Positions 2,296 to 42,027 of a stretch of 64,000 nucleotides of DNA are shown here, in pieces. Both the position numbers and the translations under genes were made by a program. The first letter of the stretch is position 1, and each line of letters opens with the position of its first letter. The notes under the pieces are model-generated. The model did no database searches, was not told where the DNA came from, and was given only the letters and a program-made list of their open reading frames with translations. Source of the DNA: a virus; the IMG/VR virus record IMGVR_UViG_3300040959_000809; one strand, written 5' to 3'.

Positions 2296-2324
2296 TTGAC
2301 TTTTTAGTCAGCCTGTTTTATTAT
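2296..2324 (+). promoter_or_regulatory. Early sigma70-type promoter for primase
   Basis: AAAAAAATGG-TTGACT-17 nt-TATTAT. Confidence 0.7.
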
Positions 2325-2361
2325 GTATAGTATCCTCGATGAAAAAAGGTATTATTTGAAT

Positions 2362-3369
2362 ATGGTAGACTTTGTAGACCTACAATACGCCCAACTACTT
2401 TCCGGTAGACTTGAGCAATTTAAGATTAGACACACTAGTCCTTATAAAATTAACTTCAGATGTCCTATCTGTGGTGATTCTCAGAAATCAAGGTCGAAGG
2501 CCCGCGGTTGGCTGTTGGAGAGAGACAATAAGTTCTTTTATTATTGCCACAATTGTGGTGAGAGTCAAACGTTCTCTACGTTTCTCAAGACGGTTGACAA
2601 CGTTGCCTATAAGGATTGGGTGGCGGACAAATATGTAAAAAAAGATAAACCAAATACAACATCTAGTATACTAAATAAATTTTCGGCACCGGTCTTTGAT
2701 ACCAAAAATCCTTTGAAAAAATTAAAAAAGATCAGTCAACTACGGTTTGACCACCCTATTAAAAGATATATAGAGAGTAGGGCAATTCCTACTGATTCAC
2801 ATTGGCGTTTATATTATGCTCCCAAATTCAAAACATGGGTCAATGAGATCATACCTAATAAGTTTGAGAATATAGAAAAAGACGAACCAAGATTGGTTAT
2901 GCCATTTTTTGATGAGAATGGCAAGATGTTTGGTGTCTCAGCCAGAGGATTTAATCCAAAGGGTGTGCGATACCTGACCATTATGTTTGATGAAAGGCCA
3001 AAAATATTTGGACTTGATACTGTGGACTTTGATAAACAATATTATGTGATGGAAGGTGCTATTGATAGTTTCTTTGTGACCAATGCTCTTGCTATGGCAG
3101 GCGCCGATGGTACAGTTAAGGGGTTGAAAAATTTTGATAATGCTGTATTTGTATTTGATGCTGAACCTCGAAACCGGGAAATAGTAAAACGAATGGAAAA
3201 GGTCATATCTGGTGGATACAGAATCTGTATATGGCCTAGTGATATAATTGGTAAAGATGTAAACGAAATGATTTTAAATGGAACAGAAAATGTCAACAGG
3301 GTAATTCAGGATAATATCTATAAAGGATTACAGGCTAAGTTGAGATTGCATGAATGGAGAAAAGTATGA
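2362..3369 (+). CDS. gp61: DNA primase (T4 gp61-like)
   Basis: Zinc finger CPICGDS...CHNCG, TOPRIM motifs EGAIDS and VFDAEPRN, KDVNEM; start moved to ATG 2362 because 2323 overlaps the -10 box. Confidence 0.93.
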   Translation: MVDFVDLQYAQLLSGRLEQFKIRHTSPYKINFRCPICGDSQKSRSKARGWLLERDNKFFYYCHNCGESQTFSTFLKTVDNVAYKDWVADKYVKKDKPNTTSSILNKFSAPVFDTKNPLKKLKKISQLRFDHPIKRYIESRAIPTDSHWRLYYAPKFKTWVNEIIPNKFENIEKDEPRLVMPFFDENGKMFGVSARGFNPKGVRYLTIMFDERPKIFGLDTVDFDKQYYVMEGAIDSFFVTNALAMAGADGTVKGLKNFDNAVFVFDAEPRNREIVKRMEKVISGGYRICIWPSDIIGKDVNEMILNGTENVNRVIQDNIYKGLQAKLRLHEWRKV

Positions 3370-4040
3370 ATGTGAATTTAATTAGTTACTCACAGCCAAC
3401 CGAAAACTTTATCGGTATTGAGGATGTGCAGGATTTAATTGCCTATGCGGCAAGGGTTTCAAATCCAAGTAACCAAATAAATAAGGAGACAGCCCCAAAG
3501 CTATTAAGTTATTTAATTAAACATAAGCATTGGTCACCGTTTGAAATGGCTTCAGCATGTATGGAAATTGAAACTACACGTGATATTGCTAGACAGCTTT
3601 TACGTCATAGATCATTTTCGTTTCAAGAGTTTAGTCAACGTTATGCAGACCCTACTACAGATTTAGATTTTGAAATTAGAGACGCAAGACTGCAAGACCC
3701 TAAGAATAGACAGAACAGTATCGCACTTGATATGTCTGATGAATACGACGGTGGTTTACAAGATCGTTGGGGACAAATGCAACAACGTGTTATAAACGAA
3801 GCCAAGATTGCTTACAACTGGGCCATCGATAACGGTATTGCTAAAGAACAAGCAAGGGCAGTACTACCAGAAGGAAACACACGTTCAAGATTATATGTGA
3901 ATGGAACTATTCGTTCTTGGATCCATTATATCGAGTTACGTAGTGCAAATGGTACTCAAAAAGAACATATGGATTTAGCAGTTGAATGTGCTAAGGCAAT
4001 TTCCAGCATCTTTCCGCACACGGATGAATATCTAAAATAG
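3366..4040 (+). CDS. thyX: FAD-dependent thymidylate synthase
   Basis: ThyX signature RHRSFSFQEFSQRY, HWSPFE, EQARAVLP. Confidence 0.97.
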   Translation: MNVNLISYSQPTENFIGIEDVQDLIAYAARVSNPSNQINKETAPKLLSYLIKHKHWSPFEMASACMEIETTRDIARQLLRHRSFSFQEFSQRYADPTTDLDFEIRDARLQDPKNRQNSIALDMSDEYDGGLQDRWGQMQQRVINEAKIAYNWAIDNGIAKEQARAVLPEGNTRSRLYVNGTIRSWIHYIELRSANGTQKEHMDLAVECAKAISSIFPHTDEYLK

Positions 4041-4058
4041 TAAGAGACAAAAATAGAG

Positions 4059-4080
4059 CAGGGGTTCAAGCCCCTGTTTT
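4059..4080 (+). terminator. Probable intrinsic terminator after thyX
   Basis: CAGGGG-ttcaag-CCCCTG followed by TTTT. Confidence 0.55.
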
Positions 4081-4100
4081 CTATTGAACTAGGAGAAAAT

Positions 4101-6398
4101 ATGATACAAGTAACAAAAAGGGACGGTTCAAAGGAACCACTGGACATTGAAAAGTTGCATAAGGTTGTTTTTCACGCATGTCGGGATATTACTGGTGTGA
4201 GCCCTAGTGAAGTTGAGATCAATAGTCAGATTCAGTTTTACAATGGGATTACATCACAGGAAATCCAGGAAACATTAATCAAAGCTGCGGCTGATCTTAT
4301 CAGTGAGGAAACACCTAACTATCAATTTGTTGGTGGTCGTATGATTAACTATGCTCTGCGTAAAGAAGTATATGGTCATTATGAGCCTTGCTCAATTAAG
4401 GAACTTGTAGAGCGTAATACTGAAATTGGTTTTTATGATCCAGAATTAATTACAAAATATAATGATGATGAATGGGCCAAGCTCGACTCCTATGTTAAAC
4501 ATGGACGTGATGAAGATCTGACATATGTTGCTATGGAACAACTTCGTGGCAAATATCTATGCCAAAATCGTGTGACGGGTGAAATTTTTGAAACACCTCA
4601 GATGTGTTATATCCTTATTGCCGCTACTCTTTTTCAGGACTATCCCACAGACATACGAATGGAATGGGTAAAGGAATATTATGATGCTATTTCTCTACAC
4701 GACATTAGCCTTCCTACTCCTGTTATGGCCGGTGTTCGTACTCCTCAGAGACAATTCAGTTCGTGTGTCCTTATTGAAACTGGTGATAGTCTTGATTCCA
4801 TTAATGCTACTTCTTCCTCTATTGTCAAATACGTCAGTCAGAAGGCTGGTATTGGAATTGGTGGCGGAAGCATTCGAGCTATTGGTACTCCTATCCGTAA
4901 GGGTGATGCGTTTCATACTGGTATCATACCATTCTATAAGATGTTTCAGTCGGCTACAAAATCTTGCTCGCAGGGTGGTGTACGAGGTGGTGCCGCTACC
5001 ATTTATTACCCAATTTGGCACTTGGAAGTAGAAGAATTGCTAGTGCTCAAGAATAATAAAGGTACTGAAGAGAATCGTGTACGTCATATGGATTATGGTG
5101 TACAATTTAATAAGCTGATGTATGAGCGACTTATCTCCGGTGGTGATATAACCCTATTCTCACCATCAGATGTGCCTGGATTGTATGAAGCTTTCTTTGC
5201 AGACCAAGATAAGTTCCGTGAACTATATGAACGTGCCGAACGTAATACACGGCTTCGTAAAAAGACGATGAAGGCATCTGAACTGTTCTCTATGTTTATG
5301 GAGGAGAGAAAGAACACTGGAAGGATCTATTTGCAGAATGTTGATAACGCTAATGACCACGGTTCATTTTTGCCAGATGTCGCACCGATTCGTCAATCAA
5401 ATCTTTGCGCTGAAATTGATTTGCCAACCAAACCGCTGAACGATGTAAATGATCCTGAAGGTGAAATCAGTCTTTGTACATTGAGTGCTATTAACTGGGG
5501 TAACATAAGGCAACCAAGCGACTTTGAACGAATTTGCAAGTTGGCAGTAAGAGGTTTGGATGCTCTATTGAGCTATCAGAATTATCCTATTTTGGCTGCT
5601 CAACTCTCTACTGAAAAGCGGCGGCCTATTGGAATTGGAATTATTAACTTTGCATATTGGTTGGCAAAACACGACCTCACATATCAAGATATTACATCAG
5701 AAGGGTTGGAATTAATTGATGAATATGCAGAGGCATGGTCCTATTATCTTATCAAAGCCTCTGCTGACCTAGCAGTAGAACAGGGACCTATTCCTGGGCT
5801 GATGGAGACCAAATACGGACACGGCATTACTCCTAACCAGACATATAAGAAAGACTTAGATGAGTTGGTTAAGCACAAAGAGCGTATGGATTGGAAGGGA
5901 CTTCGTAAACAGCTCAAGCATACTGGTATTCGTAACTCTACACTCATGGCTCTAATGCCATCCGAAACATCAGCTCAAATTGCAAATGCGACTAACGGTA
6001 TTGAGCCACCTCGGTCACTTATTTCAGTTAAACAATCAAAGCATGGAGTATTAAAACAGGTCGTTCCTGAATTTAAGCGACTAAAAAATAAATATGATCT
6101 ACTGTGGGACCAAAAGTCTCCAGAAGGTTACTTGAAAATTATGGCGGTTCTACAAAAGTACATTGACCAAGGTATCAGTATCAATACTAGTTACAATCCA
6201 GTATATTCAGAAGATGAAAAGATTCCTATGAGTACAATGTTGCAGCACCTATTGATGTTCTACAAATATGGTGGGAAGCAGTTATATTACTTTAATACCT
6301 ACGATGGTCAAGGTGAGGTTGATGTTGACAAGTTGGCACAAGAGCCTCTTGCACAATCAGATGTAGATGATGAGGATTGCGAATCCTGCACAATATAA
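4101..6398 (+). CDS. nrdA: Ribonucleotide reductase class Ia alpha subunit
   Basis: N-terminal ATP cone (VTKRDG), QFSSCV, QSNLCAE, MPSETS, C-terminal CESC; no intein or intron. Confidence 0.98.
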   Translation: MIQVTKRDGSKEPLDIEKLHKVVFHACRDITGVSPSEVEINSQIQFYNGITSQEIQETLIKAAADLISEETPNYQFVGGRMINYALRKEVYGHYEPCSIKELVERNTEIGFYDPELITKYNDDEWAKLDSYVKHGRDEDLTYVAMEQLRGKYLCQNRVTGEIFETPQMCYILIAATLFQDYPTDIRMEWVKEYYDAISLHDISLPTPVMAGVRTPQRQFSSCVLIETGDSLDSINATSSSIVKYVSQKAGIGIGGGSIRAIGTPIRKGDAFHTGIIPFYKMFQSATKSCSQGGVRGGAATIYYPIWHLEVEELLVLKNNKGTEENRVRHMDYGVQFNKLMYERLISGGDITLFSPSDVPGLYEAFFADQDKFRELYERAERNTRLRKKTMKASELFSMFMEERKNTGRIYLQNVDNANDHGSFLPDVAPIRQSNLCAEIDLPTKPLNDVNDPEGEISLCTLSAINWGNIRQPSDFERICKLAVRGLDALLSYQNYPILAAQLSTEKRRPIGIGIINFAYWLAKHDLTYQDITSEGLELIDEYAEAWSYYLIKASADLAVEQGPIPGLMETKYGHGITPNQTYKKDLDELVKHKERMDWKGLRKQLKHTGIRNSTLMALMPSETSAQIANATNGIEPPRSLISVKQSKHGVLKQVVPEFKRLKNKYDLLWDQKSPEGYLKIMAVLQKYIDQGISINTSYNPVYSEDEKIPMSTMLQHLLMFYKYGGKQLYYFNTYDGQGEVDVDKLAQEPLAQSDVDDEDCESCTI

Positions 6399-6407
6399 AA
6401 AAATTAG

Positions 6408-6436
6408 TTGACATTACATCGGTATTATGTTATATT
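6408..6436 (+). promoter_or_regulatory. Early promoter upstream of nrdB
   Basis: TTGACA-17 nt-TATATT preceded by an A-tract. Confidence 0.65.
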
Positions 6437-6471
6437 GGTTTAATGTGGCTACAATATCAAAGAGGGCAAGA

Positions 6472-7599
6472 ATGAGCGTTTTTAACACCGCAAACAAAGC
6501 GGATCACACAAAGGTAACAATGTTTTTGGATCCAACTGGTGGTCCAACAATTCAGCGTTACGACACATTAAAATATAAATCATTTGATAAGTTGACTGAT
6601 AGTCAACTCGGGTTTTTCTGGCGACCAGAAGAGGTTGACATTTACCAGGATGCAAAGGACTTTAAAAGTCTAACTGAACATGAACAACACATCTTTACGA
6701 GTAATTTGAAGCGTCAAATTTTACTTGATTCTGTGCAAGGTCGAGCTCCAGTAGAAGCATTTGCTCCTATTGTAAGTTTGCCAGAGATTGAGAATTGGAT
6801 CCAAACATGGACATTCTCAGAGACAATTCATAGCCGTTCGTACACACATATTATTCGTAACATTTATTCTAATCCATCTAAAATCTTTGATGAAATGATG
6901 GACATTGAAGAAATTGTTGATTGTGCTGGCGACATCTCCAAGTATTATGATGACCTGATTAGAATGAGTTCATATTACAATCTACTGGGTGTTGGTCGTC
7001 ATGCAATCAATGGTGATATTGTACCTGTTGACCTATATGAGTTGAAGAAGCTATTATGGCTTACACTGATGAGTGTTAACATTCTTGAAGGTGTTCGTTT
7101 CTATGTTTCGTTTGCATGTTCTTGGGCATTTGCAGAACTGAAGAAGATGGAAGGTAATGCTAAGATCATCAAGTTGATTGCACGTGATGAGAATTTGCAC
7201 CTTGCTTCGACTCAACTAATGCTTCGTACACTACAAAAGGACGACCCAGATTTTGTAAAAATTGCAAAAGAAACTGAAGCAGAATGCATTCAAATGTTTG
7301 TAGATGCTGTAGACCAAGAAAAGGCCTGGGCTGAATATCTATTTAAAGACGGGTCAATGATTGGTTTGAATACTGAGTTGCTTGGGCAATATATTGAGTT
7401 TATTTGTACACGCCGAATGAAGAATGTAAATTTGACCTCTCCTTATGATGTCAAAACAAATCCACTTCCGTGGACTCAAAAATGGATTTCTGGTGCTGAT
7501 GTTCAGGTAGCACCTCAGGAAACAGAAATTACAAGTTATGTATCAGGTGGGACTAAACAAGACGTATCAACAGACACATTTAAGGGGTTCTCACTATGA
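6472..7599 (+). CDS. nrdB: Ribonucleotide reductase class Ia beta subunit
   Basis: FFWRPEE, ETIHSRSY (radical Tyr), EGVRFYVSF, RDENLH; start set at MSVFN because the longer ORF overlaps the promoter. Confidence 0.97.
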   Translation: MSVFNTANKADHTKVTMFLDPTGGPTIQRYDTLKYKSFDKLTDSQLGFFWRPEEVDIYQDAKDFKSLTEHEQHIFTSNLKRQILLDSVQGRAPVEAFAPIVSLPEIENWIQTWTFSETIHSRSYTHIIRNIYSNPSKIFDEMMDIEEIVDCAGDISKYYDDLIRMSSYYNLLGVGRHAINGDIVPVDLYELKKLLWLTLMSVNILEGVRFYVSFACSWAFAELKKMEGNAKIIKLIARDENLHLASTQLMLRTLQKDDPDFVKIAKETEAECIQMFVDAVDQEKAWAEYLFKDGSMIGLNTELLGQYIEFICTRRMKNVNLTSPYDVKTNPLPWTQKWISGADVQVAPQETEITSYVSGGTKQDVSTDTFKGFSL

Positions 7600-7817
7600 C
7601 GGTAGAAATTTGGGGCAAGGACAATTGTCCTTATTGTGTAAAAGCAAAGGCATTATGCGAACAGAAGGAATTGGAATATACATATAAACAACTGGGTATA
7701 GACTTTACCCGCGAGGAAATATTAGAAACGTTTCCAGGTGCAAGAACATTTCCACAGATTAAGGTAGACGAGTCTCCTATTGGTGGTTACGAACAATTAT
7801 GGCATTTATACTCATAA
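7596..7817 (+). CDS. nrdC: Glutaredoxin (NrdC-like)
   Basis: CPYC active site, TFPQI and IGGY motifs, next to nrdB. Confidence 0.92.
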   Translation: MTVEIWGKDNCPYCVKAKALCEQKELEYTYKQLGIDFTREEILETFPGARTFPQIKVDESPIGGYEQLWHLYS

Positions 7818-7881
7818 ATCAGTATGCTAAAATAACATAAATAAGCTTGTAAGTTCACCCACTAAGAGGAATGTAAATAAA

Positions 7882-8361
7882 ATGAACACAAACGAATATG
7901 ACATTGTCGTGATTAAGGTCGTCGACGGTGATACAGTAGATGTAGATATTGATCTTGGATTCGGTATTTGCTTGAAGGATGAGAGGGTCCGTATTATGGG
8001 CATCGATACTCCTGAATCACGTACATCAGATAGAGTAGAAAAGTTATTTGGTAAGGCATCTAGCAAACGGCTAGGTGAGTTGCTTGCAAATGGTGCTAAA
8101 CTTATTACTACTGAGGACAAATCTGGTGAGGATATGAAGGGAAAGTTTGGTCGTATTCTTGGTGACTTTCGTGCTGCGGATGGACGTTTGGTTACTGAAA
8201 TCATGATTTCAGAAGGGCATTGTGTTCCATATTTTGGTGGATCAAAGGAAGAGGTCCAAGCACAACATATGAAAAATAGGGAAAAGCTATTAGCCGAAGG
8301 TGTAGTAGACCGTGCAGAATTTGATAAAATGACAATCGCTGAGGCTAACGAAAAGAAATAA
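7882..8361 (+). CDS. Thermonuclease (SNase-like) family nuclease
   Basis: [22 protein letters not shown]. Confidence 0.88.
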
Positions 8362-8377
8362 TGCAAGGTTTTTTGCT

Positions 8378-9571
8378 ATGATTGAAACTTCATATTTTGA
8401 AAAGATAGTTGAAACTTTAAAACTTGATGGCAATTATCGGGTTTTTAATGATATCCTTAGAGAGCGGGGAGACTTTCCCCGCTCTATTTGGTATGGCCCA
8501 TATGCACCAAAGCAAATTGTAAATTGGTGTTCTAATGATTATCTTGGTATGGGGCAAAATAAAATCGTTATAGATGCAATGCACACCGCATTGGATCAGA
8601 CAGGTTCCGGATCTGGTGGTACCCGTAATATTGGAGGAACCTCGCATTATCATGTTACACTTGAACGAGAATTAGCATCCCTACATAAAAAGGAATCTGC
8701 CCTTTTATTTACTAGTGCATATGTCGCCAACGAGTGGTCGTTGATTGCACTTACAAGAATAATTCCTGATCTTATTTTTCTGTCTGACAATAAAAATCAT
8801 GCCTCTCTTATTATGGGCATAAAACACAGTCGAGCACCCAAAATTGTTTGGGAACATAATAATATGCAAGAGCTTGAGTTAGCACTTCAAACTGCTCAGT
8901 TGTCAAACAAGACACCAATAATTGTTTTTGAATCTGTATATTCAATGGATGGTGATGTGGCACCGATTAAAGAGATATGTGATCTTGCTGATAAGTATAA
9001 TGCAATGACGTATATTGATGAGGTTCATGCGGTCGGGCTCTATGGTCATATGGGGGCTGGATATTTAGAAAAGCTAGGATTAACAGATAGGGTTGATATT
9101 ATAAATGGGACGATGGGAAAAGCCTTTGGAGTTCAGGGAGGTTATATTTCTTCTAGCTCTATTGTTATTGATGCAATTCGTTCTGTGGCTTCTGGATTTA
9201 TCTTCACCACCTCACTCAGCCCAGTCATTTGCGCCGGCGCTCTCGCGTCCATCAGATATCTTAAGGATCACAACGAATTAAGAGAACAGCACCAGGAACG
9301 TGCGGCAAAACTGACATCAATGTTAAAAGATAATAATATTGAGATACACGAATCAGCCTGTACTCATATTGTTCCTGTAATGATTAGAGATGCCAAAAAG
9401 TGTAAAAAGTTAAGTGATATCTTATTGCAACAATTTGGCATATATATTCAACCAATCAACTATCCTACGGTAGATGAAGGGCAGGAAAGGTTGCGCATTG
9501 CGCCGACACCATTACATGATGACACTATGATGCTAGACCTGGTAAATTCACTAAAGAAAGTTTTAGAGTGA
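8378..9571 (+). CDS. hemA: 5-aminolevulinate synthase (PLP-dependent, Shemin/C4 pathway)
   Basis: [50 protein letters not shown] (PLP Lys), [23 protein letters not shown]. Confidence 0.93.
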
Positions 9572-9675
9572 ATAATAAAAACAATAATGTATTAACAGTC
9601 AAACTTATGCTATTTTTATGTGTGTTTTTGCATTTTATAGTAATACCAATATGGATGTGGAGTTTAGGATTATGA
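9568..9675 (+). CDS. 35-aa single-pass membrane micro-protein
   Basis: Hand translation: [35 protein letters not shown]; GTG start overlaps the hemA stop (GTGA); not in the ORF track. Confidence 0.45.
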
Positions 9676-9725
9676 ATCAACTTGAATCGGCATTCTTTGG
9701 CAAACGACTGTGGAAGGAAAATAAA

Positions 9726-10145
9726 ATGAATAAAATTAAAAAAGCTTTTTGGTTTACACTTGGGATTTTACTGGTTGGCGTAGCCTACTTGGGTGTTATT
9801 CTTCCAGGCTTGCCGTGGAGTACGCCAATCCTTGGGGCCGCCTTTTGCTTTGCAAAATCGAGCAAGAGGTTTCACGATTGGATCATGAATCATAAGACCT
9901 TTGGGCCATTTATTACTGAATGGCAGACGTATAAAGTCTACCCACAAAAAGCTAAATACCTTATGATGGTTGTAATGGCTACATCGCTAGGGTTTATGTA
10001 CTGGGGCACTGGTAACCTTATGGCAACATTTTATCTCTTTATCTTATTTGTGTTAATCGTAACATGGGCATGGAGATACCCAGGTTCAAAAGAGGAATCA
10101 AAAAGACGTAAAAAGGCAGGCAAAAGACTTGGCTGGCTTAAATAA
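9726..10145 (+). CDS. YbaN/DUF454 family inner-membrane protein
   Basis: GVILPGLPWSTPILGAAFCFAKSSKRFHDWIMNHKTFGPFI matches the DUF454 pattern; SD GGAAGGA before ATG 9726. Confidence 0.8.
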   Translation: MNKIKKAFWFTLGILLVGVAYLGVILPGLPWSTPILGAAFCFAKSSKRFHDWIMNHKTFGPFITEWQTYKVYPQKAKYLMMVVMATSLGFMYWGTGNLMATFYLFILFVLIVTWAWRYPGSKEESKRRKKAGKRLGWLK

Positions 10146-10212
10146 ATAAACATAACAACGCTTGGTGGTAATTCTGCCAAGCACTTTACAATGTTATTGA
10201 TGAGGAGATATA

Positions 10213-11238
10213 ATGACAAAACGAATTCTTATTACCGGTGGCGGTGGTTTTATTGCTCACCATCTGATCAATCAAGTACTTATCCGTACCGATTGGGAAA
10301 TTGTTACATTAGATCGGTTGGACTATAGCGGTAATCTTAATCGCTTACATGATCTACTTCAAGACCGAACACCGGCAGAACGCAAACGCGTACGAACAAT
10401 CTTTCACGATTTAAAGGCTGAAATCAATCCAATGCTCGAAGCTGACATTGGACCTGTAGATATTGTGGCTCATCTTGCGGCTGGATCTCATGTCGATAGA
10501 TCAATTGATAGGCCTATGGAATTCGTAATGGATAATGTTGTTGGTACTGGCAACCTATTGGAATATGCTCGTAGGCAAGAAAACCTTGAGCGGTTCCTGT
10601 ACTTCTCCACAGATGAGGTTTTTGGCCCAGCGCCAGAAGGTATAAAATATGACGAGTATGATCGTTATAATAGTACAAACCCATATTCTGCTTCAAAGGC
10701 CGGTGGTGAAGAATTAGCTGTTGCATATCAAAACACATATAATATGCCAATTTACATTACGCACACAATGAATGTATTTGGCCAACGACAGCACCCAGAA
10801 AAATTTATTCCTATGACTATTCGGAATGTCCGTGATGGTAATACCGTTACGATCCATTCTGATGCTTCAAAAACAATCCCAGGTTCCCGTCATTATATCC
10901 ATGCTGAGGATGTAGCAGATGCTACACTATTTTTGTTACAGCATGAAGGTACCTTGGATATGTCAAACAATACAGGAATTAAATGTCCTAAATTTAATAT
11001 CTGCGGTGCTACGGAATTAAACAACTTGGAACTTGCACAACTTATTGCAAAGGCCCAAGGAAAGGAATTAAAATATGAGTTTATGGACTTTCATAGTTCT
11101 CGGCCTGGCCACGACCTTCGGTATGCTCTTAGCGGTGACCGTATGGCGGCTATGGGTTGGCTTCCACAACCAGTTGAACAGCGACTTGAAGAAGTTGTGC
11201 GATGGACTTTAGATAATACGAGGTGGTTAGACATATGA
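10213..11238 (+). CDS. NAD-dependent epimerase/dehydratase, dTDP-glucose 4,6-dehydratase (RmlB)-like
   Basis: GGGGFIA, HLAAGSHVDRSI, STDEVFG, YSASK, RPGHDLRYA. Confidence 0.9.
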   Translation: MTKRILITGGGGFIAHHLINQVLIRTDWEIVTLDRLDYSGNLNRLHDLLQDRTPAERKRVRTIFHDLKAEINPMLEADIGPVDIVAHLAAGSHVDRSIDRPMEFVMDNVVGTGNLLEYARRQENLERFLYFSTDEVFGPAPEGIKYDEYDRYNSTNPYSASKAGGEELAVAYQNTYNMPIYITHTMNVFGQRQHPEKFIPMTIRNVRDGNTVTIHSDASKTIPGSRHYIHAEDVADATLFLLQHEGTLDMSNNTGIKCPKFNICGATELNNLELAQLIAKAQGKELKYEFMDFHSSRPGHDLRYALSGDRMAAMGWLPQPVEQRLEEVVRWTLDNTRWLDI

Positions 11239-11801
11239 GTTGGAATCAATTAATTGATAATGCATATAATTTTGCAAGATATCAGAAGAGTGACATTCAT
11301 GAGCACATTCCGGTTCTGTATGAGCTAGGTTTGGAGTGTGACCATGTAACAGAAATGGGTGTGCGGACAGGTAACAGCACCAGAGCATTTCTTAAAACTG
11401 ATGCTGTATTGAGATCATATGATTTAAAATTGGATAAACGTATGGTTGAAATTTTTAATGAGGCTGTAAAGGCAGATAAAGATGTAGAGTATATTGCAGG
11501 AGATGTTCTCACATTGGACATTGAGGAAACTGATCTGTTATTCATTGACACCTGGCATTGTTATGCTCAACTTTGTAAGGAATTAGAACTTCATGGTAAT
11601 ATGGCTCGGAAATATTTGGTGTTTCATGATACATTTACATATGGCCTACGAAATGAAAGTGGGCAAGATCCTGAGCCAGGATCCGAGCCATACCAAGGTT
11701 TGTTGCCAGCTATCATTCAATTTATTATAAAGAATCCTCACTGGCGATTTAAAGAGTTTTATATGAACAATAATGGTTTAACGGTATTGGAACGAGTATA
11801 A
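11235..11801 (+). CDS. Class I SAM-dependent methyltransferase (Methyltransf_24-like)
   Basis: EMGVRTGNST, DLLFIDTWH, LVFHDT; ATGA overlap with the upstream gene. Confidence 0.75.
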   Translation: MSWNQLIDNAYNFARYQKSDIHEHIPVLYELGLECDHVTEMGVRTGNSTRAFLKTDAVLRSYDLKLDKRMVEIFNEAVKADKDVEYIAGDVLTLDIEETDLLFIDTWHCYAQLCKELELHGNMARKYLVFHDTFTYGLRNESGQDPEPGSEPYQGLLPAIIQFIIKNPHWRFKEFYMNNNGLTVLERV

Positions 11802-13369
11802 TGATTGTAGATTGTTTTCCGTGGTTCGCACCATATGGTGAGGAAGTATTACGCTTAAGAGTAAATCTTTTAAAGGATTACGTTGACAAATTTATTATTG
11901 TAGAATCAAACAAGACTCACAGTGGCAAGCCCGTTGAGAGAAAATTTCTGGAAATTGCCAAACGTAATGATCTTCCAATGGATAAAATTATATACGTCGA
12001 GCATGACATTCCAGAACCCGATGAGTTTGAAATACTTGATATTGATTATCAAAACGCTGGGTTGAATAGAAAAAGAAAACATTCGGTAAATGCTAGAGTC
12101 CGTGAACGACTACAAAAAGATGCTGTTATGGAAGGTATGAAAGATTTACCAGACGATGCCGTGTTTATCTATGGTGATGCTGATGAGGTTATAAATCCAA
12201 TCAATATTCCTTGGGTGGCTAATATCACCAGAAACAACCCTAATGTAATCATTAAGATACCATTGGTATATTTACAAGGCCGAGCAGATCTTCGTATCCA
12301 CCATGAAGAAGGAAAACCAGTTGTTTGGTGGCGCGCGATGTTCTTTGCTACAAAAAAGCAAATTATGGAAAATAAAATCAGCAATATTCGCTGTGGTAAC
12401 ATAAAACTACCAGTACAGTGGCCTACTCACAATAATGCTGTTATTCAGGACATGGGGTGGCATTTTGCCTGGATGGGTAATAACGAACAACGAAATACAA
12501 AGGCCACTTCTTTTGCGCATGCGTTTGATAAATTCGCCTGGCAGATAAAACAAGGCGCTGGCGACTATTCTAAATATGACCAGTTTATGAAAAGTACACC
12601 CCCAGTTGCTGGTGAGGTAGCCCCAGATGGTCACCCAGATCACATATTACGAGAGTATGCACTGGAAAAACTACCACCTATGGTCCTAGAGGATTCATTC
12701 ATTAGAGAGTTTCTCTTGCCAGAGACTGATCTTGATAAACCAGAAGAGTTTATGTTCAATAGGTGTACTTGTAGTTGGTGTGAATCAATTAAATGGCCAT
12801 TACTGTTTGATCTGGATGGTGAAAAGACTTGGTTTGAAATACCTAGAAGCTGTTCGGTCACCATTAAGGAAACGTATCCCAACCGAAAAAGAATTGAAAA
12901 GGATGCTCAGTTGGTGAAGGGCAAATGGCTAAAATACAGTGCAGTTAAGAGTAAACCTATTGTAATATTTACTGATCCTATTGATAGATTTATTTCCTGT
13001 ATTAATGTGTATCTTGTGCCTGGTCAGAGATATTACAATTATGGGCAAAATATTTTTCAAGCACTTGGTAAGAATCTTGATGAGTGTACGAAGGAAGAAA
13101 AAATTGATCTGTTTTTTAAAAACCTGCAAAAGATTGGTAGTCTCCACCAGGTCCATCATTTTCACCCACAATGTATGTTTGTGGACACTCAATCGTTTGA
13201 TGAGTTCGAGGTCGTTCCTCGGAAGAGTGTGAATAAGTTCTTTGGTATATCAACTGTATATAATAGAACAAAGAAAGAGATAACAAAGAATGATCTGAGC
13301 CCACAACAGCTTAATTTTATTACAAAAATTTATCAGTCAGATTATGACTTTTTTGAAAAATATGGTTGA
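11801..13369 (+). CDS. GT17-like glycosyltransferase fused to a C-terminal sulfotransferase-like domain
   Basis: N-terminus MIVDCF..LRLRVNLL.DYVDKFIIVESNKTHSG, RERLQKD, DADE, GWHFAW; C-terminus IPRSCSVTIK, TDPIDRFIS, HFHPQ. Confidence 0.7.
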   Translation: MIVDCFPWFAPYGEEVLRLRVNLLKDYVDKFIIVESNKTHSGKPVERKFLEIAKRNDLPMDKIIYVEHDIPEPDEFEILDIDYQNAGLNRKRKHSVNARVRERLQKDAVMEGMKDLPDDAVFIYGDADEVINPINIPWVANITRNNPNVIIKIPLVYLQGRADLRIHHEEGKPVVWWRAMFFATKKQIMENKISNIRCGNIKLPVQWPTHNNAVIQDMGWHFAWMGNNEQRNTKATSFAHAFDKFAWQIKQGAGDYSKYDQFMKSTPPVAGEVAPDGHPDHILREYALEKLPPMVLEDSFIREFLLPETDLDKPEEFMFNRCTCSWCESIKWPLLFDLDGEKTWFEIPRSCSVTIKETYPNRKRIEKDAQLVKGKWLKYSAVKSKPIVIFTDPIDRFISCINVYLVPGQRYYNYGQNIFQALGKNLDECTKEEKIDLFFKNLQKIGSLHQVHHFHPQCMFVDTQSFDEFEVVPRKSVNKFFGISTVYNRTKKEITKNDLSPQQLNFITKIYQSDYDFFEKYG

Positions 13370-14418: not shown

Positions 14419-15156
14419 ATGGCACGCAAGTTTATTTTTGATGTGGATGGAACTCTCACACCCAGTAGAGGAAAAATGGATCCAGAGTTCAAGGAATTCT
14501 TTTTGGATTTTATGAACCGCGAGCCATGCTTTCTGGTGACTGGTAGTGATTATCCCAAAACTGTAGAACAGATTGGAGCAGAGGTTACTGAAAATGTTGC
14601 CTGTGTTTATAACTGTAGTGGTAATGATATATTCTTTAAGGGTAAACGAGTAAATTCTAATGAGTTTACTTTGCCTTCTGACCTAAAAGCATTTCTTCAG
14701 GGATGGCTAATTTCTAGTAAATTTTATTTGCGTACTGGAAACCATATTGAGGAACGGAAGGGACTGGTAAACTTTAGTGTCGTTGGCCGAAATGCCAAGC
14801 CAAAACAAAGGGGGGAATATGTTAAACACGACAAAGAGTTCCGTGAAAGAGAAACAATTGCATATCTAATCAACACACAATGGCCTGAAATTCAAGCGTC
14901 TGTTGGTGGTGAAACTGGAATTGATATTCACCGTCGAGGTTCTGACAAGTCTCAAATTCTGGAAGACTTCGACAAGGATGCCGAAATCCATTTCTTTGGT
15001 GATGCGATGGATCCAGGTGGAAATGACTATCCTTTATACGCTGCTTTGCAACAGGTTAACACTAATCATAGGACTAGATGTTATCATATAAAAGATTGGC
15101 AAGAAACATATAATAATTTGAAAAAAATGGTTGACATTCCTTTAGGAGTGTGGTAA
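14419..15156 (+). CDS. HAD-IIB phosphatase, eukaryote-type phosphomannomutase-like
   Basis: FDVDGTLT, VTGSD, IEERKGLVNFSVVGR, GGETGIDI, FFGD..DPGGNDY. Confidence 0.82.
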   Translation: MARKFIFDVDGTLTPSRGKMDPEFKEFFLDFMNREPCFLVTGSDYPKTVEQIGAEVTENVACVYNCSGNDIFFKGKRVNSNEFTLPSDLKAFLQGWLISSKFYLRTGNHIEERKGLVNFSVVGRNAKPKQRGEYVKHDKEFRERETIAYLINTQWPEIQASVGGETGIDIHRRGSDKSQILEDFDKDAEIHFFGDAMDPGGNDYPLYAALQQVNTNHRTRCYHIKDWQETYNNLKKMVDIPLGVW

Positions 15157-18304: not shown

Positions 18305-19258
18305 ATGAGTTGTTTGTACAAAGGGAAAGTTGTAGAATCTGAACTATCCAAGAATGCTCGTGGTGGAAGTGAAATGATGAGAGACCGTCTGCTTAATAGC
18401 GCGGATCCCATCCTTTTAGATAAGGTAGCAATTCATCTTTCCAGACCACGGGAATTGTACGAGGATGTCCCTAATATTCTATGGTGTCATGATCTAGCCG
18501 AAGATCCTGAAAACGAAATCCTCAAGGATGGTGGTTGGAAAAAATTTGACCACTTTATATTTGTCACCGCTTGGCAACGTGATCAGTATGTAGTACGATA
18601 TGGAATTCCATACTCAGAATGTACTGTGATCTATAATGCTATTGAGAAGACATATGATCCCAAGGAAAAGAATACTGATACTATAAGATTTGTTTATCAC
18701 ACCACTCCACATCGTGGGCTGGAATTGTTGGTACCTATCTTTGAGGCTCTTGCTCAACAGTTTCCGAATATTCATCTCGATGTGTATTCAGGGTTTGATA
18801 TCTATGGATGGCAAGATCGTGATGAGCCTTACAAAGGTCTTTACACCAGGATTGATTCTCATCCTAATATGACGTATCATGGGGTCCAGGATAATGAGAC
18901 TGTGCTAAAAGCACTTGAAAGTGCTCACGTGTTCCTATATCCAAACATTTGGCGTGAGACGTCTTGCATCGCACTCATCGAGGCAATTAAAAGTCAGGTG
19001 ATTTGTATCCATCCAAATCTTGGTGCCTTACCAGAGACAGCGACAAACGCAACTATTATGTATGATTTTAATGAGGATCCAAAGATCCATGCAAATTATG
19101 CATATGCAATTACTGCTCAACTTCTTGTGGCAATGCAGAATGATGAAAATTATTTTAATAAGTGGACATATTCTGATCGCTTTGCCTTGGCAAGAAACAG
19201 CATAGAGTCGTTTGCAACTGTGTGGAATCAAACACTTAGGAATATTACAGATGTCTGA
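18305..19258 (+). CDS. Glycosyltransferase, GT-B fold (GT4-like)
   Basis: GGSE, LWCHD, TPHRGLELL, ETSCIALIEA. Confidence 0.85.
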   Translation: MSCLYKGKVVESELSKNARGGSEMMRDRLLNSADPILLDKVAIHLSRPRELYEDVPNILWCHDLAEDPENEILKDGGWKKFDHFIFVTAWQRDQYVVRYGIPYSECTVIYNAIEKTYDPKEKNTDTIRFVYHTTPHRGLELLVPIFEALAQQFPNIHLDVYSGFDIYGWQDRDEPYKGLYTRIDSHPNMTYHGVQDNETVLKALESAHVFLYPNIWRETSCIALIEAIKSQVICIHPNLGALPETATNATIMYDFNEDPKIHANYAYAITAQLLVAMQNDENYFNKWTYSDRFALARNSIESFATVWNQTLRNITDV

Positions 19259-22162: not shown

Positions 22163-22921
22163 ATGGCATCAACGCAACGTCGTCTTTCAAAAAAACAGCA
22201 ACGTAAAGCGAATCAAAATCAAAATAGGCAACAAATGCTCATGAGAGAAATTGAACCTATGACTGATACGCAAGAAACTCTATTTGATTTATATGATGAA
22301 GATAATAATGTGGCTGCCATAGGTTCTGCTGGAACGGGAAAGACAATGTGTGCTTTATATTTAGCACTATCGGATGTACTAGAACTACCTGAATATGATA
22401 AAGTTATTATAATCAGGTCGGCAGTACAAACTAGAGAACAAGGTTTTATGCCTGGTTCAAAGGCACAAAAGGAAGCTGTGTTTACGGCACCATACGTCGA
22501 TATTGTAAATAATCTCTTTGGGAGAGGAGATGCCTGGGAAGTTTTAAAATCAAAACAACTTATTGAATTTATGACTTCGTCATTTGTACGAGGTCTTACA
22601 TTCGACAATGCAATTATAGTAGTAGATGAATGTCAGTCTATGACATACCACGAGCTTGATTCAATTATTACTCGGGTCGGTGAATCATCAAAAATTATTT
22701 TCTGTGGAGACACCGCACAAGATGATTTGGCGACATCCAGAAATAGAGCTGAGTTCTCCGGGCTGGTTGATTTCATTAAAGTACTTAGAAAAATTCCATC
22801 ATTTAAGGTGGTAAATTTTAAGACTGCTGACATCGTTCGCTCAGGTCTTGTAAAGGAATATATAATTGCAAAGGAAAACGAAAGTAGAAATCTTAGGCTG
22901 GTAGAACCAGTCCGTATGTGA
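22163..22921 (+). CDS. phoH: PhoH-like ATPase
   Basis: GSAGTGKT, QGFMPG, FVRGLTFDNA, VDECQ, GDTAQ, DIVRSGLVK. Confidence 0.95.
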   Translation: MASTQRRLSKKQQRKANQNQNRQQMLMREIEPMTDTQETLFDLYDEDNNVAAIGSAGTGKTMCALYLALSDVLELPEYDKVIIIRSAVQTREQGFMPGSKAQKEAVFTAPYVDIVNNLFGRGDAWEVLKSKQLIEFMTSSFVRGLTFDNAIIVVDECQSMTYHELDSIITRVGESSKIIFCGDTAQDDLATSRNRAEFSGLVDFIKVLRKIPSFKVVNFKTADIVRSGLVKEYIIAKENESRNLRLVEPVRM

Positions 22922-28112: not shown

Positions 28113-29066
28113 ATGGCACATAATCTTGAAATTATAGCTGGCCAGGCTCAAATGGCATACCGTGAATCAAAAGGCAAGCCTTGGCACGGTCTTGGCACCC
28201 CCGTACACGACTTTATGACTCCACAAATGATGATGGAAGCAGCTGGTCTTGACTGGGAAGTCGAAAAGGTTGACACATTTATTCGCTATAAAGGGGATAA
28301 TGTTGCGACTGGTACACAAGCTCTCGTACGCTCAAGCGATAGTAAAATCCTAACCCAGGTTGGTCCTGGATGGAATCCGGTTCAAAATGCAGAGGCGTTT
28401 GACTTCTTTACAGAGTTTGTTTCAAATGGTGACATGATCATGGATACAGCTGGCTCCCTAAAGGACGGGCAAATTGTCTGGGCCCTAGCTGATGTTCGTG
28501 ATGGATTTTCACTGTTTAACGGTGACGACGTAAAGGGCTACCTTTTGTTTTCAAACCCACACCAATACGGAAAATCAATCGACATTAAGTTCGTAATGGA
28601 ACGTGTCGTTTGCAATAACACTTTGACTGTGGCATTAAACGAAAAAGGAATGCCTGGTGTTCGGGTTAACCACCGTTCTGAATTTAATCCTCAGCGTGTA
28701 AAGGAGATTCTTGGTCTCTCTCACACACGGATTGGTCAGTTCGAAGAGGCTGCAAACTTCCTTGGCTCTAAGCAATACAACAAATTCGACCTTCAAAAAT
28801 TCCTTGCTGAAGTGTTTGGTGAGTCAAAAAAGGAAGGCAAGGAATTGTCTCGCACAGCACAACGTGCTATGGATATTGTAGAGTCACAGCCCGGCGCACA
28901 CTTCCGTCCAGGCTCATGGTGGAATGCATATAATGCAGTCACCTATATGACTGATCACGAGCTTGGCCGTTCAGCCGATACTCGGATGACATCTGCATGG
29001 TTTGGTACAAATGCCAAGCGTAAGGTTGATGCTCTAAATGTCGCCCTGGAAATGGCAGACGCATAA
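28113..29066 (+). CDS. DUF932/DUF945 family protein (phage/plasmid TIGR03299-like)
   Basis: MAH.LE, PWHGLG, AGLDWEV, PVQNAEAF, TAGSLKDG, RVVCNNTL, WWNAYNAVT. Confidence 0.9.
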   Translation: MAHNLEIIAGQAQMAYRESKGKPWHGLGTPVHDFMTPQMMMEAAGLDWEVEKVDTFIRYKGDNVATGTQALVRSSDSKILTQVGPGWNPVQNAEAFDFFTEFVSNGDMIMDTAGSLKDGQIVWALADVRDGFSLFNGDDVKGYLLFSNPHQYGKSIDIKFVMERVVCNNTLTVALNEKGMPGVRVNHRSEFNPQRVKEILGLSHTRIGQFEEAANFLGSKQYNKFDLQKFLAEVFGESKKEGKELSRTAQRAMDIVESQPGAHFRPGSWWNAYNAVTYMTDHELGRSADTRMTSAWFGTNAKRKVDALNVALEMADA

Positions 29067-36108: not shown

Positions 36109-37440
36109 TTAAAACAGGTTAGCTACACGTACGCGACGGTAGTACTTGTTAGCATTAGCTGTAAGAGCACCAAGACCTTGTGCATCTTGAACTGCGCCTT
36201 CCGCGAATGGGTTTGCAACCATGCCGTAGCGAGTCTTGAACCCGATTTTTGGCTGGAAGCTGTTCTCACCGATGGCACGAACCATTTGCAACGGTACGTA
36301 TGGGCAATAGAACAAGCCAGCATCAAAGGCAGAAGAACCTTTGTAACCAACAACCATGTAGTTTGAACCAGCATATGGATCAATGTATACACGATAGCGG
36401 CCGTTAAGTACACCAGCAAATGTGTTGCCTGTGTCATCAACTTCCAAAGAGTTTCCGTTAAGTGCAGGAGTATAATCCAACACACCAGCCATTTGAAGAG
36501 CAGAAGCTACATCTGAAGAACAGATAACCATGTTACCTTTTCCACGTCTTGTGTCTTTTGCGATTTGGTTAGCTTCTTGTTCAATTTGGAACATAAGTCC
36601 TTTGAACTTCTCAACAGACCAACGGCCGTTTGCATCAACATCCAAATCAAAGATGCCTGCATTAGCAGTTGCAGTAGCACCAGCAGAAGCAGTGTTGTAG
36701 ATTGTACGAACAACTTCCCGGTTGATTTCTGTCAAGATTTCTGATTGCAGAATGTTAGCCAATTCTGATTCAGCATCCAAGCCGTGAACAGCTTTAAGAT
36801 CCTGAGCCAATTCAGTGGTGTATTCCGCTTTCAGTGCACGTGACTTAGCAGCAACGGTTACTTTTTCAATCGAGAAAGCCATTTCTGCATAGTTAGTACC
36901 AGCACCGTCGCCTAAGGCTTCAGCCGCAGCAGTTGCCATACCTGTACCTGTATCAAACAGTGAAGTATTACCTGTACCTGCGCCACCAGTTGAACCAACC
37001 TGTGCACCTGTACCTGCGTGAATTGTATCTGCCTCACCATAGAATGCTTCATTACCTGCCTGTGTATCATAGCGTGAACGCATTGCAAAGATAAGACCTG
37101 TTGGGCCAGTCATAGGCTGAACACCACAGATATCATATGCAATTAGGTTCGGCATAGAACGGCGAACAAGTGAAATCAACACTGGATCATAACCAGCAGT
37201 TGGTCCACCTGGCGTAGAGCCTGAGCCAAATCCGCCTGTACCAGCATCATTGGTTGGTGCTTCTGTCAGCATGCTCATATTAGCAGACAGATCACCTGAT
37301 TCATGGAGAGCTCGTTCTGTGTTCTCCAAAATCGTCGCAGTCACGGATTTACGATGACTGTCCTGAATAGGTGAAAAAGATTCGTGCTCAAGGATTGGCC
37401 CCCACTTTTCCACAAGCTTTTGATAGTTTGTCTCTGACAT
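36109..37440 (-). CDS. gp23: Major capsid protein
   Basis: LVRRSMPNLIAYDICGVQPMTGPTGLIFAMRSRY, SRALKAEYTTELAQDLKAVHGLDAE, YCPYVPLQM, FKTRYG. Confidence 0.99.
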   Translation of the reverse strand: MSETNYQKLVEKWGPILEHESFSPIQDSHRKSVTATILENTERALHESGDLSANMSMLTEAPTNDAGTGGFGSGSTPGGPTAGYDPVLISLVRRSMPNLIAYDICGVQPMTGPTGLIFAMRSRYDTQAGNEAFYGEADTIHAGTGAQVGSTGGAGTGNTSLFDTGTGMATAAAEALGDGAGTNYAEMAFSIEKVTVAAKSRALKAEYTTELAQDLKAVHGLDAESELANILQSEILTEINREVVRTIYNTASAGATATANAGIFDLDVDANGRWSVEKFKGLMFQIEQEANQIAKDTRRGKGNMVICSSDVASALQMAGVLDYTPALNGNSLEVDDTGNTFAGVLNGRYRVYIDPYAGSNYMVVGYKGSSAFDAGLFYCPYVPLQMVRAIGENSFQPKIGFKTRYGMVANPFAEGAVQDAQGLGALTANANKYYRRVRVANLF

Positions 37441-40473: not shown

Positions 40474-42027
40474 TTAAAGTTCGGGCTCTTGATCATTATT
40501 ATTGTCGGCATCAAGATCTGCATCAGGATCGGGTTCTGATTCCTTTTCTTGTGCCATTCTTTCCTGTTCTTCCTTCCAATCATCATCGTTTAATTGAAGA
40601 ACATTTTTAACGACCCATTCTCTTGAATAATATGTACCAACATGATCTTCAACTTCTCTCAATGTTGACATACGTTCTCTAAGTATTTCAGCATCTTTGA
40701 GTTCATCAAAATAATTTTCTTGAATAAAATCATAACGAATTGAATTTTGTATTTCAGAAAAGTCTTCAGGGCTCATAATACCCTTAAGAATAAGTTGTTT
40801 TTCAAGAATAATACTAAAGAGGTAGGAAAATCTACTACGGATACGACGGATAAATTTCCCAAATTTTACCTCATCACGGCTGATTTCAGAAACACGACCA
40901 AATGAATACATTGTTTCTGGTTCAAGTCTTGATAAAGGAACCTTTAATGATTTGTATAACTTACGCTGAAAGTACTGTAAATTGGTATCGTCTGTTAGCC
41001 CTGCGGCGTTACCACCAGCCATAACATCTACCTCTGTTGAGCGTTCGCCACCTCTCCGTGGGAACCAAAAGTCTTCTGTCATAGTCATCATCTTACGAGA
41101 GTCTGAAATCTCACCAGTTGATGAATTGTATTGTAACTTATTCTTATGACGAATCATCATATCTCTTAGATATTGTTCAGCTTTCGATTTAGGTAGGTTG
41201 CCAACATCAATATAGAAGATTCTTCTTTCAGGAGCTCTTGTAAGAGTATAAATGACTGTAGCATCCTCAAGCATCCTTAATTGGTTCAGAGGTTTAATAG
41301 CTGGGTGCAAATGTCCTAGAACCATTGAATTGTTTTCATTCATAATTCCAGAGGTCACACGAGCAATAGAATCTTTTGATATTCTATAACCTTGTGTATT
41401 ACCACCTGTCGCACCAGCAGAAGCATTAGTAAACCCACTATCAGAATAAAGATAATATTCATTCTTTAGTTTTTTAGTTGGAATACCCGAATGTGGATCC
41501 TTTTTACGCTTATCAATCTGTTTTACCAGCTTAATTTTACGAGGATCAATATATCGTAGTTCAATAATACCTCGTTTTAAATCATCATCATCAATAATAA
41601 TATGATAATTAAGCCGACCATCCACATAGAACTTATTGAAAATATCGTAGGCATTATTACTAAAATCAAATAACGACAGAACATTTTTAAATTCTTCTGT
41701 TACCTTTTCTTTTACCTTGTCAGGTAGATCCGTTTCTTCCAAAACAATTTCAACGACGTCATTATGAACATCAATAGAAATTGCCTCGTTTACAACCTCA
41801 TCAATCGCCTGCGCAATTTCTGGTTGGTGTGACATACCGCGGTATTTAGTGACAAGTTCGGACTCACTTTTAGCAGCACCCTCCATATCAAGAAGAGTGC
41901 CATAAAAGCCACCCAAAGCGTTGCCAACGGTAATGGCACCATCATCATTTAATGGTTCAGCGAAAGACACCGGGGCATTGTCTGCCTCGTCCTCTGGTCG
42001 CTTAATCTCAAAGCCAAATAATCGCAT
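40474..42027 (-). CDS. gp20: Portal protein
   Basis: LFGFEI, FYVDGRL, RAPERRIFYIDVGNLPK.KAEQY, EDFWFPRRGG. Confidence 0.98.
   Translation of the reverse strand: MRLFGFEIKRPEDEADNAPVSFAEPLNDDGAITVGNALGGFYGTLLDMEGAAKSESELVTKYRGMSHQPEIAQAIDEVVNEAISIDVHNDVVEIVLEETDLPDKVKEKVTEEFKNVLSLFDFSNNAYDIFNKFYVDGRLNYHIIIDDDDLKRGIIELRYIDPRKIKLVKQIDKRKKDPHSGIPTKKLKNEYYLYSDSGFTNASAGATGGNTQGYRISKDSIARVTSGIMNENNSMVLGHLHPAIKPLNQLRMLEDATVIYTLTRAPERRIFYIDVGNLPKSKAEQYLRDMMIRHKNKLQYNSSTGEISDSRKMMTMTEDFWFPRRGGERSTEVDVMAGGNAAGLTDDTNLQYFQRKLYKSLKVPLSRLEPETMYSFGRVSEISRDEVKFGKFIRRIRSRFSYLFSIILEKQLILKGIMSPEDFSEIQNSIRYDFIQENYFDELKDAEILRERMSTLREVEDHVGTYYSREWVVKNVLQLNDDDWKEEQERMAQEKESEPDPDADLDADNNNDQEPEL

Follow-up and report, generated by a model that had tools for sequence, protein, structure and literature searches.

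Viral genes for 5-aminolevulinate synthase (ALAS), called valaS, have been reported by Wegner et al. (2024, Nat Commun 15:8783; PMC11480375) from marine and freshwater phage contigs. In these contigs, valaS is present either alone or together with hemO and pcyA/pcyX, and three-gene cassettes are included. [quoted passage not shown] Many viral ALAS do not have the heme-feedback residues H342 and C400 (PMC11480375). Roles of valaS in both alphaproteobacterial hosts and hosts with the C5 pathway were proposed (PMC11480375). The novelty implied in the preliminary description of the locus analyzed here is outdated, as valaS was already published in 2024 with complementation and an enzyme assay (PMC11480375).

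The window, which is the whole 64-kb stretch of DNA analyzed here, contains valaS in the following context.

4101-6398, + strand: nrdA (PHROG and Pfam)
6427-7599, + strand: nrdB (PHROG and Pfam)
7596-7817, + strand: glutaredoxin (PHROG and Pfam)
7882-8361, + strand: SNase-like endonuclease (phrog_452, 2e-27; PF00565, 6e-10)
8378-9571, + strand: valaS, phage 5-aminolevulinate synthase, an ATG-to-stop ORF of 397 aa, P0001 (TIGR01821, PDB, active-site columns, tree)
9618-10145, + strand: DUF454/YbaN-like small inner-membrane protein, P0122 (longest ORF of 175 aa; PF04304)
10213-11238, + strand: NAD-dependent epimerase/dehydratase (Pfam)
11801-13369, + strand: GT17-like protein (Pfam)
14419-15156, + strand: phosphomannomutase-like protein (Pfam)
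18305-19258, + strand: GT1 glycosyltransferase (Pfam)
36109-37440, - strand: major head protein, T4-type (PHROG; the structural set is phrog_138, 7e-165, phrog_213, 8e-185, phrog_23, and phrog_5989/phrog_2)
40474-42027, - strand: portal, T4-type (PHROG)
42619-44622, - strand: tail sheath, T4-type (PHROG)
44702-46312, - strand: large terminase, T4-type (PHROG)

The window belongs to a T4-like myovirus. The phage setting claimed in the preliminary description is borne out by primase, ThyX, nrdA/nrdB, and glutaredoxin, together with the T4-type head, portal, sheath, and large terminase. The neighbors of valaS are also as claimed there: the SNase-like nuclease is upstream, and the epimerase and glycosyltransferases are downstream. 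Primase, ThyX, RNase H, and PhoH are encoded on the + strand. The GC content of the window is even (0.34-0.43), and the GC skew is uniform across the junctions of valaS. There are no tRNA genes in the 64-kb window. A DUF932 protein (28113-29066, + strand) and a PhoH-like ATPase (22163-22921, + strand) are found amid a long run of small genes on the + strand. Many ORFs between 19 and 35 kb have no match in the sequences around valaS that were taken from IMG/VR and the species-representative genomes.

A profile search and a phylogeny against ALAS, BioF, and KBL (glycine C-acetyltransferase) were both run, and the identity as ALAS was upheld. The protein scored 569.6 bits against TIGR01821, the NCBIfam equivalog of ALAS (EC 2.3.1.37), whose cut-off is 338.55. 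The scores against the sister models were all below their cut-offs: 321 bits for KBL (cut-off 460), 315 bits for BioF (cut-off 426), and 194 to at most 235 bits for serine palmitoyltransferases (cut-offs of at least 500). The most closely related proteins with solved structures are a bacterial ALAS (7x98, E = 5e-134) and R. capsulatus ALAS (RcA; 2bwn, E = 2e-122), followed by KBL (E = 5e-62). In the tree, ALAS are split from the KBL/BioF-like sequences with the SH-aLRT support of 100. Thus, the protein is ALAS and neither BioF nor KBL.

All seven PLP and catalytic motifs quoted in the preliminary description are found in the ORF, and their order is as given there. The alignment to 2bwn and 7x98 showed that the Schiff-base lysine K248 (RcA K248) is conserved. 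The PLP contacts H141, D214, H217, T245, T277, and T278 (RcA H142, D214, H217, T245, and S/T277-T278) and the succinyl-CoA contacts R21, T82, and N84 (RcA R21, T83, and N85) are conserved as well. The arginine for the glycine carboxylate is R373 (RcA R374), inside the RLRIAP motif. Residues were counted by column in 161 sequences, 89 viral and 72 alphaproteobacterial ALAS. R21, N53, T82, N84, H141, E185, S189, D214, H217, T245, K248, T277/T278, and R373 are invariant among them. The valaS of the window therefore encodes a true ALAS with an intact active site.

The residues associated with heme feedback show a different pattern. RcA H342 corresponds to K341 in the window protein, which ends before the tail bearing RcA C400. 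In the 7x98 enzyme, mutations of C75 and C263 relieved the inhibition by hemin (PMC9951541); these residues are aligned with T75 and I264. The pattern of residues fits a feedback-insensitive enzyme. Among the 72 nearest alphaproteobacterial ALAS, only 5 have His at the position of H342, and only 24 have the C-terminal Cys. These sites are lineage-specific, so their absence is not specific to phages and proves little about the loss of feedback.

Relatives of valaS were found on 298 IMG/VR contigs, and the best 80 of the 298 are 69-81% identical to the window protein. The identity is 67-81% to other viral copies and 67-98% within the viral clade. The species-representative genomes include a 98% identical copy on a 10-kb contig of a Saprospiraceae metagenome-assembled genome (MAG). 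Copies with 67-73% identity are in MAGs labeled as Crocinitomicaceae, Flavobacteriales, Neomarinimicrobiota, Polynucleobacter, Vibrio, Alphaproteobacteria, and Rhodobacteraceae. This taxonomic scatter looks like stray phage contigs in bins. After a gap in identity come the true alphaproteobacteria (Sneathiella, Kordiimonas, and roseobacters). Bacterial ALAS are 53-59% identical to the window protein, and never over 59%. In deposited phage genomes, tblastn revealed only matches of the KBL/BioF type, with 27-36% identity, in records where host DNA is a contaminant or is transduced, and these were rejected as true ALAS.

The maximum likelihood tree was constructed with 85 rows in the quick mode of IQ-TREE, with SH-aLRT as the only support value. 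The two KBL/BioF-like outgroups, from which ALAS are separated at 100, have long branches. The viral and mis-binned rows form a single clade of 39 rows (SH-aLRT 100, stem of 1.19 substitutions per site), which branches among alphaproteobacterial ALAS. The valaS of the window is inside a subclade of 20 rows, also supported at 100. As far as the tree indicates, valaS descends from alphaproteobacterial ALAS. The GC content is 0.388 for valaS and 0.385 for the whole window, against a median of 0.587 for alphaproteobacterial loci. This agreement with the phage, far from alphaproteobacteria, indicates a long-resident phage gene rather than fresh host DNA. In the closest IMG/VR relative, L001, the capsid is 98% identical to that of the window and valaS only 81%. 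Module swapping between near-identical phages was considered here and rejected, as the whole region shows 72-89% DNA identity, an ordinary divergence.

The stop codon of the nuclease is 16 nt before the start of valaS, which leaves no space for a separate promoter, and no terminator-like site was found between them. It is thus probable that valaS is cotranscribed with the upstream genes. Sigma-70-like promoters are not enriched over shuffled sequence (38 against 32.5 expected), while terminator-like sites are (13 against 5.6 expected). The strongest terminator-like match within 2-11.5 kb, an 11-bp GC-rich hairpin with a T-rich tail, is located in the 5' portion of the valaS ORF (8461-8485, + strand). 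nrdA, nrdB, and glutaredoxin are near valaS in only 23-36 of 80 related viral loci, indicating a local gene order rather than a fixed module. In L001 (positions 3-2846, compared with 4101-7599 of the window), the pair of genes preceding valaS shows only 22-23% identity to nrdA/nrdB of the window. A non-orthologous ribonucleotide reductase seems to be in the same slot.

The gene downstream of valaS encodes a protein of the DUF454 family. Its true start is likely to be ATG at 9672 (~157 aa) or ATG at 9726 (139 aa, preceded by GGAAGGA). The score is 100.1 bits against PF04304 (cut-off 35.1) and 75.4 bits against NF007818, the equivalog of E. coli YbaN (cut-off 163). The protein is therefore a member of the DUF454 family and not the YbaN equivalog. 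A co-oriented DUF454 gene is present at 80 of 88 viral or mis-binned valaS loci. In 66 it is directly adjacent, often with a 4-nt overlap, and in six of the eight loci without it the contig ends at most ~1 kb after valaS. The runner-up among the neighbors is present at 42 of 80 loci. No DUF454 ORF was found within ~6 kb of ALAS at any of 72 alphaproteobacterial loci (blastp; HMM at E ≤ 10). The phage DUF454 proteins share 28 invariant positions. Identity to the window copy is at least 65% in 16 of the 18 members of the subclade that have DUF454 and at most 58% in all representatives outside it. Judged by these identities, the sequence type of DUF454 tracks the valaS subclade. The correlation between the identities of valaS and DUF454 to the window is weak (rho 0.32), with compressed identities of valaS, and it was dropped as evidence.

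The two genes are not always linked. At 27 of the 80 best DUF454 loci in IMG/VR, there is no valaS in the flanks (up to 5 kb each side; two of them end at a contig end), and valaS is elsewhere in only 3 of 24 of those records. A 330-kb record with DUF454, estimated to be 93% complete, has no ALAS anywhere. The neighbors of these lone phage DUF454 genes are assorted (phosphoesterase, epimerase, gp5, desaturase-like, NADAR, and exoribonuclease) and show no theme of tetrapyrroles. As DUF454 is also present in phages without nearby valaS, the adjacency could be an inherited gene order. L210 (IMGVR_UViG_3300007609_000003) is a complete relative of 201,055 bp with direct terminal repeats and an 84% identical capsid. 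Its bilin reductase (~7.6 kb), DUF454 (~41.4 kb), and valaS (~76.6 kb) are at three separate places, indicating that valaS and DUF454 can be unlinked within one genome. L087 (PBPT01000016.1), a 335-kb contig with the MAG label of Neomarinimicrobiota, has viral-type valaS, 73% identical, and an overlapping DUF454 near one end. Possibly, a phage with a very large genome has been deposited here under a bacterial MAG.

The AlphaFold model of DUF454 is all-helical (pLDDT 86). Foldseek against PDB returned no match at E ≤ 0.001, and VIA-align wide returned only generic, uninformative helical hairpins (best Z 6.7). The matches in ESM Atlas were only other viral DUF454 clusters, and deposited phage genomes contain no genuine DUF454. 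Two reports link the family to iron or heme, both indirectly, and they are the only such links in the literature. A member is induced under iron restriction in Avibacterium (PMC7970244), and the family co-occurs, with heme oxygenase, around T11SS hemophore loci (bioRxiv 10.1101/2024.09.26.615229). No specific ALA exporter is known, and accumulated ALA is toxic through reactive oxygen species (PMC9951541), which makes a putative role of DUF454 in the handling of ALA or porphyrin a reasonable idea. It is conceivable, if doubtful, that DUF454 is a functional partner of valaS, either by tethering the enzyme to the membrane or by acting on ALA or a photoreactive porphyrin through export, sequestration, or channeling. 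If so, it would be the first functional handle on the DUF454/YbaN family and on the way phages avoid the toxicity of ALA and porphyrin.

Neither hemO nor a bilin reductase was detected in the window by tblastn with phage queries, and the window corresponds to about one-third of the genome. They are also absent from the flanks (up to 8 kb each side) of the 80 nearest viral valaS loci. An adjacent pair of hemO and bilin reductase is present elsewhere in 11 of 21 whole IMG/VR records with close relatives of valaS. C88, a contig in the Saprospiraceae MAG, is a 19-kb T4-like fragment (GC 0.387) with gp59, gp32, UvsX, gp41, and adjacent hemO and bilin reductase. The lineage of the window phage probably has the "broken cassette" already published, as we infer from C88, whose link to the window is its binning and composition.

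The preliminary description proposed an alphaproteobacterial host. The portal and capsid of the phage give little to sustain this, being only 49-66% identical to those of the nearest isolates. Capsid identity is 64-66% to the Sinorhizobium phages phiN3 and phiM12 and the OM43 phage Melnitz, and 63% to cyanophages. Portal identity is 54% to phiM12, 49% to pelagiphage HTVC008M, 47-49% to cyanophages, and 48% to pelagiphage Mosig. By these values, the structural proteins are about equally distant from those of rhizobiophages, pelagiphages, and cyanophages, and the assignment to pelagiphages has no specific support. The near-identical contigs are in a Saprospiraceae (Bacteroidota) MAG, ERR594325_concoct_111, a GTDB species representative that is 98% complete with 2% contamination. 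It includes at least four T4-like phage contigs (C140, C123, C78, and C88; loci L085 and L178). Three of them are 95-98% identical to 13-35222 of the window, and the fourth is C88. The MAG has no ALAS of its own, and its best other matches are 31-34% identical and KBL/BioF-like. Its chromosomal loci have a GC content of 0.36-0.38, compared with 0.385 for the phage. The GC content and the binning are compatible with a Bacteroidota host or with mis-binning driven by composition. No CRISPR, tRNA, or prophage link to a host was found. The suggested connection with anoxygenic phototrophy gained no support in this analysis.

Taken together, it is very likely that the locus carries a functional phage valaS of alphaproteobacterial origin, an auxiliary metabolic gene (AMG) for the supply of tetrapyrroles in infection, with DUF454 as its companion. 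The family membership, the intact active site, the phage location, the viral clade, and the conserved pairing are observed here, and the enzyme activity is known from the literature, for a homologue only. The carrier would be a T4-like marine myovirus, uncultured, whose genome measures ~190-200 kb. Its valaS would go back to a single ancient acquisition from alphaproteobacterial ALAS, followed by divergence within phages. We infer the timing of expression, the loss of feedback, the physiological benefit, and any role of DUF454, as follows. Transcribed probably with the upstream nrdAB, glutaredoxin, and nuclease, valaS would catalyze the PLP-dependent condensation of glycine and succinyl-CoA into ALA. 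During infection, it would keep ALA flowing to heme and other tetrapyrroles independently of host control. The enzyme is devoid of the residues to which heme feedback has been ascribed in two bacterial ALAS. The habitual companion of valaS, the DUF454 membrane protein, may have a role there in the handling of ALA or a tetrapyrrole.

Two alternatives concern the gene itself. The fold and many motifs are common to all alpha-oxoamine synthases, and the KBL and BioF models still score 315-321 bits. It is nevertheless highly improbable that the protein is KBL, BioF, serine palmitoyltransferase, or a cyclizing ALAS for C5N antibiotic units. The rival scores do not reach their own cut-offs, while the ALAS score exceeds its cut-off by 230 bits. 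In the tree, the protein is separate from KBL/BioF at 100, and the succinyl-CoA residues R21, T82, and N84 are conserved. The best PDB match is 7x98, a conventional ALAS of the hemA type that serves for ALA production (PMC9951541). The flanking genes (2323-13369) include no acyl-CoA ligase or amide synthase by Pfam or PHROGs, with two ORFs (175 and 192 aa) having no such match. The sequence was assembled from a metagenome and ALAS is otherwise a cellular gene, as would be expected for a misassembled chimera of host and phage, but the probability of this is close to negligible. The gene order is repeated in independent assemblies, such as a 10-kb contig with 97% identity from nrdA to the glycan genes, and the exact valaS protein is recorded on 12 contigs, including one of 193,013 bp. 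Phage genes of the primase, ThyX, and nrdAB types flank valaS in about half of the 80 nearest of the 298 IMG/VR contigs. The GC content and GC skew are uniform across the junctions, and the GC content of valaS matches the phage and not alphaproteobacteria.

The other two alternatives concern the host and the use of the product. Given the three 95-98% identical contigs in the Saprospiraceae MAG without its own ALAS, the host may be a C5-pathway bacterium, for example, one of Bacteroidota/Saprospiraceae. In that case, valaS would provide a Shemin bypass consisting of a single enzyme, sparing glutamyl-tRNA for translation and evading the regulation by the host, a scenario discussed by Wegner et al. 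(PMC11480375). In line with it, the MAG chromosome and the phage have similar GC contents, and Bacteroidota account for three of the eight MAGs in which viral-type valaS is present. We regard this host as a tentative possibility, since CONCOCT bins by composition and coverage, so that contigs of equal GC content can be mis-binned. Five unrelated groups are represented among the eight MAGs, a spread that stray phage contigs typically show. By capsid and portal together, the isolates nearest to the window phage are Sinorhizobium phages with alphaproteobacterial hosts, and the window, without tRNA, offers none of the host links mentioned above. It is unlikely that valaS chiefly feeds a bilin route of the phage instead of heme for respiration. 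In such a route, valaS would supply ALA, host enzymes would make heme, a phage heme oxygenase would make biliverdin, and a ferredoxin-dependent bilin reductase of the phage (PcyX/PcyA-like) would make bilin, as a signal or chromophore, or with iron release as the output. The adjacent hemO and bilin reductase in 11 of the 21 records, the same pair on C88 in the MAG that has 95-98% identical copies of the window, valaS and bilin reductase in the complete 201-kb relative, and the published three-gene cassettes (PMC11480375) point in this direction. However, neither gene is in the window or around the 80 nearest viral valaS, and 10 of the 21 records do not have them, though these 10 are fragments. 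C88 is connected with the window phage by binning and composition only, and phage bilins have no known function in non-cyanobacterial hosts (PMC11480375).

The window protein is aligned over the full length with R. capsulatus ALAS (2bwn) and the hemA-type ALAS 7x98, with all contacts for PLP, glycine, and succinyl-CoA. It differs from cellular ALAS in its identity of at most 59% and its shorter C-terminus without the Cys-bearing tail. Like E. coli YbaN/DUF454 (PF04304), the companion is a small helical membrane protein, but it falls below the cut-off of the YbaN equivalog. The heme AMGs of cyanophages and pelagiphages (hemO/ho1, pcyA, pcyX, and pebS) belong to the same pathway theme, and relatives of the window phage carry hemO and bilin reductase. 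The steps of these AMGs are downstream of heme, in contrast to that of valaS at the pathway entry, and none of these AMGs is in the window.

The most closely related system is valaS of Wegner et al. Both belong to the same enzyme family and are on T4-like aquatic phage contigs. In both, the viral proteins cluster apart from bacterial ones with ~55% identity to alphaproteobacterial ALAS, the catalytic lysine and the substrate sites are conserved, and the feedback residues H342/C400 are missing. Both also have valaS of the "individual" type, for which hemO and pcyX are absent or located elsewhere. The preliminary description proposed that valaS feeds the entry of tetrapyrrole synthesis in the infected host, and the published model assigns it the same role. 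On the other hand, the supplementary files of Wegner et al. contain none of four diagnostic peptides from the window protein, indicating that the exact sequence is outside their set. Their marine contigs have a GC content of 30-38%, and the window, at 38.5%, is above nearly all of them. Those contigs were assigned to pelagiphages, while the capsid and portal of the window are no closer to those of pelagimyophages than to those of rhizobiophages or cyanophages; the assignment thus need not apply here. DUF454/YbaN is not mentioned in the text of Wegner et al., and the DUF454 companion is the only element without a match in the literature. Its near-constant pairing with valaS is a useful lead, and if the pairing is functional, it would tie a widespread bacterial membrane family to the metabolism of ALA, heme, or iron. 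The valaS of the window is another, somewhat atypical example of the published class of AMGs. Its carrier, a phage with a higher GC content than most published marine examples, not clearly pelagiphage-like, and with a possible link to Bacteroidota, widens the range of phages known to act on the first step of tetrapyrrole synthesis.
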